Virus record (IMG/VR): IMGVR_UViG_2667527914_000011
DNA: 25,118 nt
Direction: 5' to 3' (one strand)
Origin: a virus
Taxonomy: Duplodnaviria; Heunggongvirae; Uroviricota; Caudoviricetes
The notes beneath the pieces were generated by a model, which ran no database searches, had not been told where the DNA came from, and saw only the letters and a list, made by a program, of their open reading frames with translations. Of this stretch, positions 3,822-24,330 are shown in pieces (the stretch's first letter is position 1; each line of letters begins with the position of its first letter). The position numbers and the translations under genes were made by a program.

Positions 3822-4421
3822 TCAGAACTTATAACCGACACCCACGATGAAACCGTCAGTGCGCCAGTCGCCACTGCCGGAGCCTTCATAAGCAATATCA
3901 ATGGCCACGGATTCGGTCGGGTTAAACTGCACGCCAGCTCCCCACGCCAGAGACGTGTTGCTGTGGCGACCGTCATCACTTCCGGTCAGCACGTCGTGCG
4001 TTTTCCCCTTGTTGTCAGTTACGCGGAGATAATCCCCGGAGAAAGTCGACACACGGCTGTAAGCCACACCCGCCATCGCATACGCGCTGAACCATTCATT
4101 CACGCGCACAGACGGCCCCGCCATTACGCTGAACCAGCGGTTACGAACGGAATCTTCATGCCAGCGGGTATCGCTGTAACGGGTCAGCTGGCGATTCTTG
4201 TCTCCTGCATAGCTGAATGACGTCACCAGCCCCAGCGTATCCGTAAACTCATAACGGTATTTCACGTTAATCCCGTTCAGATCATCACTGCCGGGAACGT
4301 TGGTCCGGGCATGAAGATACCCCGCGCTCAGCGTGGACTGATGTTCAGACGCCCATGCAGGCGCACCGGATACGGCCAGACAAATGGCTGCGGACAAAAT
4401 GGCGGCACAAACTTTACGCAT
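3822..4421 (-). CDS. lom: outer membrane protein Lom (Ail/Lom/PagC/OmpX family beta-barrel), complete copy
   Basis: 199-aa ORF with signal-peptide-like N-terminus MRKVCAAILSAAICLAVSGAPAWA and C-terminus DIAYEGSGSGDWRTDGFIVGVGYKF matching lambda Lom; GAGAGG Shine-Dalgarno motif upstream of the ATG; sits between J and stf as in lambda. Confidence 0.9.
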   Translation of the reverse strand: MRKVCAAILSAAICLAVSGAPAWASEHQSTLSAGYLHARTNVPGSDDLNGINVKYRYEFTDTLGLVTSFSYAGDKNRQLTRYSDTRWHEDSVRNRWFSVMAGPSVRVNEWFSAYAMAGVAYSRVSTFSGDYLRVTDNKGKTHDVLTGSDDGRHSNTSLAWGAGVQFNPTESVAIDIAYEGSGSGDWRTDGFIVGVGYKF

Positions 4422-4491: not shown

Positions 4492-4656
4492 TCAACGAAT
4501 ACTGATGCCGGAAGCCGCTTTTTTGGTCACAATCACCGTACAGTCGGTGATATTGCCTGCCCCCTGATTGCCTTTCTGGAAAATCTTAAACTCCAGAGTG
4601 ACGCTACCACCACCACTAGGCATATCAATAACTGCACTGTAACTACCGGGAATGGC
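4492..4656 (-). repeat. duplicated copy of the last 165 nt of J (3' end only), abutting the scaffold gap
   Basis: 4492..4656 appears identical by eye to 5216..5380; it encodes ...[54 protein letters not shown], the J C-terminus. Confidence 0.8.
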
Positions 4657-4691
4657 NNNNNNNNNNNNNNNNNNNNNNNNNNNNNNNNNNN
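4657..4691. other. assembly or scaffold gap (35 N)
   Basis: Run of 35 n characters in the sequence. Confidence 0.98.
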
Positions 4692-5145
4692 GACCGTCAT
4701 CACTTCCGGTCAGCACATCGTGCGTTTTCCCCTTATTGTCAGTTACGCGGATATAATCCCCGGAAAAAGTCGACACACGGCTGTAAGCCACACCCGCCAT
4801 CGCATACGCGCTGAACCATTCATTCACGCGCACAGACGGCCCCGCCATCACGCTGAACCAGCGGTTACGCACGGAATCTTCATGCCAGCGGGTATCGCTG
4901 TAACGGGTCAGCTGGCGATTCTTGTCTCCTGCATAGCTGAATGACGTCACCAGCCCCAGCGTATCCGTAAACTCATAACGGTATTTCACGTTAATCCCGT
5001 TCAGATCATCACTGCCGGGAACGTTGGTCCGGGCATGAAGATACCCCGCGCTCAGCGTGGACTGATGTTCAGACGCCCATGCAGGCGCACCGGATACGGC
5101 CAGGCAAATGGCTGCGGACAAAATGGCTGCACAAACTTTACGCAT
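4692..5145 (-). CDS. lom: second copy of lom, 5' portion only (about 151 codons); 3' end lost in the N gap
   Basis: Same N-terminus MRKVCAAILSAAICLAVSGAPAWA as copy 1; about 7 nucleotide differences from copy 1 over 454 nt, one non-synonymous (DYLRV versus DYIRV). Confidence 0.75.
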
Positions 5146-5215: not shown

Positions 5216-8200
5216 TCAACGAATACTGATGCCGGAAGCCGCTTTTTTGGTCACAATCACCGTACAGTCGGTGATATTGCCTGCCCCCTGATTGCCTTTC
5301 TGGAAAATCTTAAACTCCAGAGTGACGCTACCACCACCACTAGGCATATCAATAACTGCACTGTAACTACCGGGAATGGCACCTTTAGTTTCTCTGGATG
5401 CGATTAATACGCCGTTTTTGCGAACTTCAAAACCATAACCCGTGTATCGCGTGCCTCCTGGGTTATTTCCGCTCCCCGGATCGTCATACGCTATACCGTT
5501 AAAAATAATGGGCGGAATAATAATCTGGCGGTCAAAGTTATGATCATCGCTTATGGTGACTGTAACCGTCCCGTTTGGTGTTTCCGTGTTACCCCACGTA
5601 CCAGCCTGTTTCGGAAATGATTTGGATACAGCTTTAACGAAGTCACCTCTGACCTGAGTCGCCTCCAGCATGCCCTTAATCGTACAGTTTTCATTTACCG
5701 TGACATTGTTGAGCGTCCCGGCGTTCGCATTCACACTGCCACTGATATCCGCATTTTTAGCGGTCAGCTTTCCGTCCGGAGTCAGGGAAAATGCCGATGG
5801 ATTTCCACCGCTGGTAATGGTGGGGGCCGTCAGGCGTTTCAGGAACACGTCGTTCATGAATATCTGATCGCCCTGACCAACAAACATCGGTTTTGTGTTG
5901 CCATTCGCAGGATTAACCATCGCAATCCTGTCCGCCGCCAGCAGCACCTGACTCTGCATGCCGTCAGGGGTGTTCTCAATACCGGCACCAATACCCGCGA
6001 TATAAAGGCGTCCGTCCTGCATCTGCTGCAGCTTCACAGCCCACATGCTGTTCAGGTTATTATTTGTATCAACCTGAACCTTCTGTATCTGCTGAATTGC
6101 CGCACTCTGGTCTTCCAGTTTCTTATTGACGGTCTGCGTGATTTCATTGCTGACATCCGTAATGGACGTCCTGATTTCAGCCAGGTCAGGCGCAAGCTGA
6201 CCGTTATCAATCTGCGTCCACAGCTCCTGAGCCAGATGGGTTTTCCCTATCTCGCCTTTGAAAAAATCCAGATAACCGGATGCATCATCACTCGGCTGAC
6301 CAACAGCCTCCACGAATGCCGATTTGCCAACGGTGTTCACACTGCGGATATAAAAGTAATAATCATGGCCCGGTTTGATATTGATACTGGCGGCTATCCA
6401 GTACAGCGCCGTGCCAAGATAGCGTGCTGTGGTTTCAACCTGCCTGATATCCGCAATCCGCTTTTCCGAGAACCAGAACTCAAACTGTACCGTCGGATCA
6501 TAAACCGCAAGATGCGGCGTGGCGGTTATCTGAAAATAGCCCGGCGTCAGCTCAATCCGCGACAGCGCTGCCGGTGCGGCAATCCGGAACGATACCGACG
6601 CCGGATCGCCCTGCTGCCCCCACGCATTTACTGCCCGGACTGTCAGCCTGTAGTTCCCCAGCGCCAGTTGTGTGAAGCGGTAAGTGGTTTCCGTCGTCCG
6701 GGCCGTGCTGACCAGCCGCTCACTGCCGTCATCCGCTGTTACGGTCAGACGGAGCAGGAAGCTCACGCCCTTCACCACCTTCGGCGTGTCCCAGCGCGCC
6801 AGCACCTGATATTCCCCGCTGTCTGCGGTGACTTCGGCAGTCAGGTGCTGCACCGCTGGCGGCGTGACACCATTCACCGTGCCGCTCTGGTCGCCGTCAA
6901 AGTGCGCCCCGTTATCCACGATGGCTTCTTTTTCCGGCACATGCTGCACGGCGGTGATGGCATACGTGCCGTCGTCGTTCTCACGGATACTCACGCAGCG
7001 GAACAATCGCTGGTGCAGCGTCGGCAGCTTCAGCCCCCACACGCTGTATTCAGCAACACCGTCAGGAACACGGCTCACTTTTACCTTCACGCCGTCGGTG
7101 ACGGACTGGACCTCCACGCTGACCGGATTCCCCTGCCCGTCAACCAGGCTTATCAGCGTGGTGCCGGAGGATGGCAGCGTGATTTCACGGTCGAGCGTCA
7201 GCGTCCGGGTCTGGCTGTTCACCGCCAGCACGCGCCCGCCGGTGCGGATACCGGCATAGTCATCATCGCAGATTTCAATGACATCGCCCGGTACATGACG
7301 AAGCCCTTCAGCACCCACGCTGAAATCCACGGTCTGCGTCTCCAGCAGTTCCGTTTTAATCAGCCACAGCCCGGCGCGGTGTGCCTGCCCCCGGCTGGTA
7401 CAGCCAAAGGCATCCATCTTCGTGACGTTACGACCGTAACGGACAATGGCCTGCGTATCCTCCACAAGCTCTGTCGCCGTCTCCCAGCCGTTATCCGGGT
7501 CAATCCAGTTCACCTCAACGGCATTATGGCGGTCTTTCAGGGCGCTGAAACTGTAGCGGAACGGCGCGCCATCATCCGGCATCACCACATTACTGCGGTT
7601 ATAGGCCCACACCTTATCCGACTGTCGGTCCTGCACGAACGTCAGCGTCTGCCCGTTCCATACCGGCATACAGCGCATCGCCGAGCAGAAATCACTGAGC
7701 ACATCCCACGCCTTGCGCTGTGTGGTCAGCCAGGCATTACAGGTGATGCGCGGCTCCGTGCTGCCAAAGCCGTCCGGCACCGACTGGTCACAGTACTGGC
7801 CGATGACATACAGCGCCCATTTATCCACATCTGCCGCACCAAGACGTTTCCCCATGCCATAGCGCGGATGGGTCAGCATATCCCACAGACACCAGGCCAT
7901 GTTGTTGCTGTATGCCGGTTTTAACGTTCCGTCCCAGATACCGCTGTATTGCCGCGTCTGCGGATTATAGTTCGACGGCACCTGCAGAATGCGCCCGCGA
8001 AGATGATAATTACGGCTCACCTGCTGGCTGCCGAACTGCTCCGAATCCACCTGTACGCCGACCAGTGCCGTGTTCGGGTAGCACTGTTTCACATCGATGA
8101 TTTCGGTGTATGACGACCAGAGCGTTTTGTTCTGCAGCTGGTCTGTGGTGCTGTCCGGCGTCATTCTGCGCATCCGGATATTAAACGGGCGCGGCGGCAG

Positions 8201-19801: not shown

Positions 19802-23482
<3,681 letters not shown>

Positions 23483-23508
<26 letters not shown>

Positions 23509-24028
23509 TCAGCAACCCCGGTATCAGTTCATCCAGCGCGGCTGCTTTGTTCATGGCTTTGATGATATCCCGTTTCAGGAAATCAACATGTCGGTTTTCC
23601 AGTTCCGGAAAACGCCGCTGCACCGACAGGGGGATCCCGTCGAGAATACTGGCAATTTCACCTGCGATCCGCGACAGCACGAAAGTACAGAATGCGGTTT
23701 CCACCACTTCAGCGGAGTCTCTGGCATTTTTCAGCTCCTGTGCGTCGGCCTGCGCACGCGTAAGTCGATGGCGTTCGTACTCAATAGTCCCTGGCTGGAG
23801 ATCTGTCTCGCTGGCCTGCCGCAGTTCTTCAACTTCCCGGCGCAGCTTTTCGTTCTCAATTTCAGCATCCCTTTCGGCATACCATCTTATAACGGCGGCA
23901 GAGTCATAAAGCACCTCATTACCCTTGCCACCGCCTCGCAGAACGGGCATTCCCTGTTCCTGCCAGTTCTGAATGGTACGGATACTCGCACCGAAAATGT
24001 CAGCCAGCTGCTTTTTGTTGACTTCCAT
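23483..24028 (-). CDS. Nu1: terminase small subunit Nu1
   Basis: 181-aa ORF MEVNKKQLADIFGASIRTIQNWQEQGMPVLRGGGKGNEVLYDSAAV..., lambda Nu1; winged-HTH N-terminus. Confidence 0.92.
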
Positions 24029-24039
24029 TGTTCATTCCA

Positions 24040-24330
24040 CGGACAAAAACAGAGAAAGGAAACGACAGAGGCCAAAAAGCCCGTTTTCAGCACCTGTCGT
24101 TTCCTTTCTTTTCAGGGGGTGTTTTAAATAAAAACATTAGGTTACGGCGAAGAAGAACGGAAACGCCTTAAACCGGAAAATTGTCATAAATAGCGAAAAC
24201 CCGCGCGCCTTCCGCCCCGTAACCTGTCGGATCGCCGGAAAGGACCCGCAAAATGATAATAATTATCATCTACATGTCACAACGTGCATCTACGCCATCA
24301 AACCACGTCAAATAATCAATTATGACGCAG
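24040..24330. other. cos DNA-packaging site region (cosB next to Nu1, cosN, cosQ side); joined, i.e. prophage or circular form
   Basis: Sequence either side of 24206..24217 matches the reverse complement of the lambda left end (...ccggaaaatt.tcataaatagcgaaaacccgcg) and right end (cgtaacctgtcggatc.ccggaaaggacccg...) as I recall them. Confidence 0.8.
24206..24217. other. cosN 12-nt cohesive-end position; overhang would be GGGCGGAAGGCG in lambda orientation, versus canonical GGGCGGCGACCT
   Basis: Plus strand cgccttccgccc, flanked by conserved ccgcg and cgtaacc; the six bases distal to GGGCGG differ from lambda as recalled. Confidence 0.55.

Follow-up and report, generated by a model that had tools for sequence, protein, structure and literature searches.

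The window, by which we mean the whole 25,118-nt stretch of DNA analysed here, holds only the late region of a prophage. The gene Nu1, encoding the terminase small subunit, lies at 23483..24028 on the minus strand and is full length at 181 aa (PF07471, E=2e-101; ORF list). Gene A, encoding the 641-aa terminase large subunit, lies at 21583..23508 on the same strand and was identified by alignments and by Pfam (PF05876 and PF20454), with both an ATPase and an endonuclease domain in its product. The gpA of the window was 99.4% identical to lambda gpA, with four changes, T151S, D185E, L404R, and T466I. The head and tail ORFs that follow A match lambda W through tfa, and all of them are full length. 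An altered start codon of gpA was considered and rejected, as lambda also uses GTG. Among 78 lambda-type TerLs, L404R was private to the gpA of the window; within the endonuclease domain, this position belongs to the motif AGIDSQLDRYE and follows D401 by three residues. Since R is the normal residue at position 404 in a TerL group that is about 66% identical, this change would probably be tolerated.

To locate cos, we aligned the reverse complement of the window with the joined ends of lambda (NC_001416, right end followed by left end), and phage DE3, whose record annotates a 12-nt 'cos site', was used as a second reference. The plus strand of the window corresponds to the minus strand of lambda, and lambda bp 1-12, the cosN cohesive-end sequence, corresponds to window positions 24217..24206. 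The minus strand at 24206..24217 reads GGGCGGAAGGCG, while the lambda counterpart in both references is GGGCGGCGACCT. By homology, 24206..24217 is predicted to be the 12-nt 5' overhang of the left virion end. The window does not match the canonical 12-base allele, from which it differs at 5/12 bases, and every difference within the cohesive end falls in bp 7-12. In this block (24206..24211, minus strand), AAGGCG replaces CGACCT: five of the six positions differ, namely bp 7 (C>A), 8 (G>A), 9 (A>G), 10 (C>G), and 12 (T>G), and C11 is kept. NC_001416 and DE3 showed that the lambda cos sequence relied on in an earlier note on this DNA is correct; the alignment that the note proposed as a check confirmed that lambda does not share the bases of the window at the block. 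The clustered change that it described is therefore real, but its count of six consecutive altered bases was one too many, since bp 11 is C in both sequences.

The 16-bp form of cosN, which includes the conserved CG dinucleotide outside each nick (as defined in PMC9026076), lies at 24204..24219 on the minus strand and consists of CG, GGGCGG, AAGGCG, and CG. Lambda has the same left half, GGGCGG, and the same CG pair beside each nick. Two-fold symmetry extends over 8/16 bp in the window and 10/16 bp in lambda. Two possible origins of the block were rejected: an inversion of lambda bp 7-12 matched it at 4/6 positions, which is not significant, and a change that restores the symmetry of cosN does not fit, as symmetry falls from 10 to 8 of 16.

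Around cosN, the 16 bp upstream, up to the nick, were identical to lambda, as were the 22 bp downstream, up to a single A35C substitution at window position 24183. The heptamer GGGTCCT at 24241..24247 (minus strand; lambda 48473-48479), which we take to be cosQ in both position and extent, as reportedly described by Wieczorek and Feiss in 2001, was identical to lambda in the alignment and kept the lambda spacing. The 7-bp cosQ is highly conserved (PMC4669245). These three stretches bear out the statement of the earlier note that the flanks are nearly lambda-identical. On the cosB side, R3 (AGGCGTTTCCGTTCTT; lambda bp 50-65, coordinates from PMC9026076) aligned at 24153..24168, R2 (lambda bp 109-124, delimited as the 16-bp repeat common to R2 and R1) at 24094..24109, and R1 (lambda bp 151-166) at 24053..24068, all on the minus strand. 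All three were lambda-identical, the distance from cosN to R3 was unchanged, and R2 and R1 kept the lambda spacing. The R3-R2 interval aligned at 24110..24152 (minus strand), the site of IHF I1 in lambda, contained five substitutions relative to lambda (T71C, A73G, T78C, T97C, and T102C), each of which also occurs in other natural lambda-like phages. The window carries a lambda-type cos site, as indicated by the flanking CG pairs, cosQ at the lambda spacing, cosB, and the Nu1 and gpA genes. It shares with lambda (NC_001416) its architecture and spacing, cosQ, the CG pairs, GGGCGG, R3/R2/R1, and the position of Nu1 and A immediately downstream, and it differs from lambda at bp 7, 8, 9, 10, and 12, at A35C, by a few changes in the I1 interval, and in the symmetry of cosN (10/16 in lambda).

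Outside the block, the 600-bp junction alignment with lambda contained 19 substitutions (3.2%). Calculated from this rate, at least five changes in some 6-bp window are expected about 1e-4 times per alignment of this kind, indicating that the cluster exceeds uniform drift. A second cluster, with four differences in 6 bp, was observed at 24288..24293 (lambda 48427-48432), where lambda reads CCTCCAC and the window CGTAGAT; here lambda is the outlier, as PhiR63_1 and 2H10 agree with the window. With respect to A35C, 10 of the 12 collected sites with C at this position carried the variant cosN, so the two form a partly linked haplotype.

Published work from the Feiss laboratory has already established that the two halves of cosN are not equivalent in function. 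Mutating bp 7-12 has minimal effects, whereas the symmetric changes are severe when made in the left half: G2C cuts yield about ten-fold, and C11G has no phenotype (PMC4669245, which gives Xu and Feiss 1991 and Hang et al. 2001 as the primary references). The asymmetry depends on the nearby cosB, and TerS bound at R3 positions TerL, so that bottom-strand nicking is insensitive to sequence (PMC4669245). The same study states that selection does not maintain bp 7-12, that natural variants conserve cosQ and the CG pair beside each nick, that the yield with lambda terminase is equal whether cosN comes from lambda or from N15, and that yield falls about four-fold when the ends mismatch at two bases (PMC4669245). 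The positions at which natural variants depart from lambda are bp 9 and 12 in N15 and phiD326 and bp 8, 9, and 11 in Gifsy-1 (PMC4669245), and the cosN of mEp213 and LLS is reported as GGGCGGCGCGCT (PMC12315714). A survey of cosN among lambda-like phages by Vahanian, Oh, Sippy and Feiss 2017 (Virology 509:140), as summarised in citing papers including PMC9026076, found high conservation of the end's first 4 bp and of the 2 bp next to each nick, with variation in the rest; the window conforms to the rule as summarised there.

Compared with these systems, the allele of the window extends a known pattern. The cosN of N15 and phiD326 (GGGCGGCGTCCG) is likewise a variant in the right half only; it differs from lambda at two positions and from the window at bp 7-10, with G at bp 12 common to N15 and the window. 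The cosB of N15 is simple, with a single R3 and without I1, whereas the window has a full lambda cosB; the variant allele itself is common in N15-like phage-plasmids. Gifsy-1 and mEp213/LLS, whose ends are as given in the cited work, are also natural right-half variants of the 12-nt lambda-type end, in other phage backgrounds and with two to three changes against five in the window. The right half of the window allele is, by sequence, the most divergent among these named examples. We know of no report in which this five-change combination was paired with terminase, only of T12G (via N15) and of single or partial right-half mutants. A full-text search of the accessible literature, to which Vahanian et al. 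2017 did not belong, found the 12-mer GGGCGGAAGGCG in no phage paper. As far as checked, right-half variation of cosN is thus an established phenomenon and this particular allele is undiscussed in the accessible literature. The earlier note had called a clustered change at this site unexpected; this is true of a cluster of five changes as a statistical matter, but not of variation in bp 7-12, which is known from N15, phiD326, Gifsy-1, and mEp213. As a separate observation, the TerL of N15 (gene 2) was 87% identical to the gpA of the window, a value at odds with the 64.9% given for lambda and N15 TerL in PMC4669245.

We then investigated how often the allele recurs, using as a probe a 37-mer that covers the variant cosN and the conserved right flank and is unable to seed on the lambda allele. 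Of 5,426 complete E. coli genomes, 155 contained exact matches, ETEC H10407 among them; the matches numbered 166, of which 150 were chromosomal and 16 were on plasmids. In the same set of genomes, the corresponding lambda 37-mer occurred at 7,413 places in 4,101 genomes. The variant was also present in 23 PLSDB plasmids from E. coli, Shigella sonnei, E. albertii, and E. fergusonii, in 77 IMG/VR contigs, in Escherichia sp. E1V33, and in 31 metagenome contigs, of which those with a source in their name came from human gut or food. The exact 162-bp cos haplotype of the window, including A35C, recurred in four IMG/VR contigs. The window as a whole was absent from the complete E. coli genome set, where the best match was 97.5% identical over the window length. 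Among the phage records, metagenome contigs, and IMG/VR contigs, none began or ended at GGGCGGAAGGCG.

The variant was strongly enriched on plasmid replicons, accounting for 16/35 plasmid-borne lambda-type cos sites compared with 150/7,544 chromosomal ones (about 2%). The plasmid-borne elements examined were N15-like linear phage-plasmids that, unlike N15, have lambda-type Nu1, A, and cosB. Two deposited phage genomes carried the variant, PhiR46_1 and YDC107_1, both of which are N15-like, and YDC107_1 is classified in Ravinvirus. PhiR46_1, annotated with telL/telR, ParA and ParB, a replication protein of the primase type, and all of a lambda-type head-tail module, is an N15-like phage-plasmid whose cos, Nu1, and A are of the lambda type. 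Its growth as a phage is indicated by the host field of its GenBank record, which names the laboratory host ECOR13. The same cos was present on plasmid pAH01-1, whose products include a protelomerase, SopA, ParB, and a replication protein of the CyRepA1 family.

A scan of genome contigs across species returned 27 matches. Those in high-G+C genomes were rejected as chance fits to the G+C-rich pattern, with no flanking similarity. In Raphidiopsis brookii D9, an Aeromicrobium sp., and the Alicyclobacillus fastidiosus plasmid unnamed3, the cos region was lambda-identical over the roughly 115 bp displayed, and in these unrelated bacterial assemblies it is most likely contamination from lambda or a cosmid vector. 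The cos region in the assembly of the myxobacterium Archangium violaceum Cb vi76 was lambda-like but not lambda-identical, and it is probably contamination as well, from an E. coli prophage or a similar source.

To describe the spectrum of alleles, IMG/VR was scanned for sites in which bp 7 is not C. This yielded 77 cases of AAGGCG, compared with one or two each of AGACCT, TGACCT, GAGCGT, AAGCGT, and AAGGCT. With all six positions left open, and with the loci collected earlier counted in, the matches listed included at least 116 CGACCT, at least 12 AAGGCG, at least one AGACCT, and at least one CGACCG. The spectrum is sharply two-peaked. The canonical CGACCT-type allele GGGCGGCGACCT was found in lambda, DE3, HK629, HK630, 2H10, and others. 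At least three unrelated cosB sequences accompanied the variant, and about 25 distinct flanks bordered it on the cosQ side. Conversely, some sites with the lambda allele (such as locus L082) have the same 60-bp upstream flank as the window and only three differences from it in the 90 bp downstream. These shared backgrounds indicate that recombination moved the block among backgrounds, or the backgrounds around the block. We also observed rare further cosN alleles in lambda-type contexts, GGGCGGAGACCT, GGGCGGTGACCT, GGGCGGCGACCG, GGGCGGGAGCGT, GGGCGGAAGCGT, and GGGCGGAAGGCT, from PhiR70_1 (L007) and from loci L085, L196, L230, L236, and L237, and the variation in these was again in bp 7-12 only.

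The relation between allele and terminase was assessed in 38 variant-linked and 36 canonical-linked lambda-type TerLs from IMG/VR and reference loci. These were retrieved by tblastn and frame scanning, and many loci lacked a full A gene. No TerL residue in this sample was diagnostic of the allele. The strongest associations were at residue 9 (N/D, Fisher p = 0.001) and then at residue 21, both near the N-terminus and outside the endonuclease domain (residues 322-600), and they probably reflect linkage to the type of the adjacent small subunit. In a wider sample of loci, four TerL protein sequences each adjoined both alleles. Both alleles also occurred with every TerS class, defined by identity to that of the window (at least 93%, 75-93%, and below 75%), and with each TerL class (at least 95% and below 80% identity). 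An intact TerL adjoined the variant in 44/77 IMG/VR loci. This comparative evidence says that the variant would not require a matched large terminase subunit.

Taken together, we consider it very probable that 24206..24217 belongs to a working cos site of a lambda-like prophage with a second natural cosN allele, which terminase would cut, because the allele recurs, its context is intact, and only the mutation-tolerant right half has changed. The mechanism would be that of lambda. As homology and published genetics suggest, Nu1 would bind the unchanged R3, R2, and R1 of cosB, with IHF at I1, and bound Nu1 would position gpA to nick the top strand before bp 1 and the bottom strand between bp 12 and 13. 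With the enzyme anchored on the cosB side, bp 7-12 would not be read, and those bases would consequently be free to differ. Nicking would occur at these homologous positions and this prophage would be packaged, its virion DNA ending in 12-nt 5' overhangs of GGGCGGAAGGCG and the complementary sequence. The two ends would always be self-complementary, since both derive from one duplex. The G+C content of the overhang is 10/12, the same as in lambda, and the calculated free energy of the duplex is -17.8 kcal/mol, compared with -18.2 kcal/mol for lambda. A variant end paired with a lambda-type end would have five mismatches, and no annealing would be expected. Given that a two-base mismatch already costs about four-fold (PMC4669245), mixed chromosomes would be poorly viable.

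Of the three explanations offered by the earlier note, the evidence favours a variant end that still works, in view of its recurrence, the intact terminase genes, and the tolerant right half. A sequence or assembly error, for which nothing but the clustering of the changes speaks, was refuted and keeps only a negligible probability, as the same 12-mer in the same conserved context is found in hundreds of independent assemblies made with different technologies. The note's remaining option was a packaging-defective prophage, in which terminase would be unable to cut the altered cosN and only a remnant of a cos site would be left. In its favour, the five changes include bp 12, beside the bottom-strand nick, many lambda-type cos sites of E. 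coli belong to defective prophages, many IMG/VR cos loci are without a full TerL, and gpA of the window has its private L404R three residues after D401. However, the packaging, head, and tail ORFs of the window from Nu1 and A to tfa are all full length and cosQ and R3/R2/R1 are lambda-identical; R404 is normal in the ~66%-identical TerL group, and T12G is tolerated in the N15 cosN. Moreover, the allele is present in two deposited phage genomes and beside an intact TerL in 44/77 IMG/VR loci, and the exact 162-bp haplotype recurs in four IMG/VR contigs, so that this option was left unsupported and appears quite improbable. A nuclease could in principle read the site, and the weak association at gpA residues 9 and 21 might then hint at a co-adapted gpA endonuclease with changed cutting specificity. 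Against this, the window gpA is 99.4% identical to that of lambda, four TerL protein sequences each occur with both alleles, and no residue of the nuclease domain tracks the allele, the associated ones being near the N-terminus. By these comparisons a co-adapted endonuclease is largely refuted, and we regard it as extremely improbable.

A different question is whether the two alleles are merely neutral or represent discrete cohesive-end compatibility groups, kept by selection against mixed ends rather than by drift. Several observations would fit such groups. The spectrum is dominated by two haplotypes separated by five steps, with few intermediates (one or two of each, compared with 77 AAGGCG), the block sits in backgrounds otherwise common to the lambda allele (L082), many genomes contain several lambda-type cos sites, and even a two-base end mismatch has a roughly four-fold yield cost (PMC4669245). 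The plasmid enrichment (16/35 vs 150/7,544, with those examined being N15-like phage-plasmids) points in the same direction. Yet two deep haplotypes shuffled by recombination would look alike under neutrality, vertical inheritance of defective prophages inflates the number of chromosomal sites with the lambda allele, and in the literature bp 7-12 are regarded as under no constraint. We regard selection for compatibility as unlikely. If it did operate, a chromosome with one lambda cos end and one AAGGCG cos end would, with its five end mismatches, fail to circularise, and the allele would isolate its carriers, notably the N15-like phage-plasmids, from packaging mix-ups with co-resident lambda-type cos sites. 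In its most specific form, which we hold to be similarly doubtful, the lambda-type phages of Escherichia would have two cohesive-end 'mating types', CGACCT and AAGGCG, kept apart by selection, with the minor type at an advantage in N15-like phage-plasmids because it would insulate them from the many lambda-type cos sites, and the cos-dependent satellites, of the same cells.

If the site is a functional second allele, as we favour, it would add little that is new to the mechanism, but it would provide a natural example, with five changes, of how little of the right half is read. In practical terms, and by the counts from the two 37-mers, a search for the literal lambda 12-mer would overlook about 2% of the cos sites in E. 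coli and almost half of the phage-plasmid ones. In cosmid work or in vitro packaging with such phages, the ends would not anneal to lambda arms.

Finally, two lom-like genes were observed in tandem downstream of J. The downstream copy at 3822..4421 (minus strand) encodes a full 199-aa Lom. The upstream copy at 4492..5145 (minus strand) encodes 217 aa, of which residues 1-153 are Ail/Lom and residues 164-216 correspond to the C-terminal receptor-binding domain of gpJ (PF12421); this chimeric gene looks like the scar of a recombination event that exchanged the C-terminus of J.
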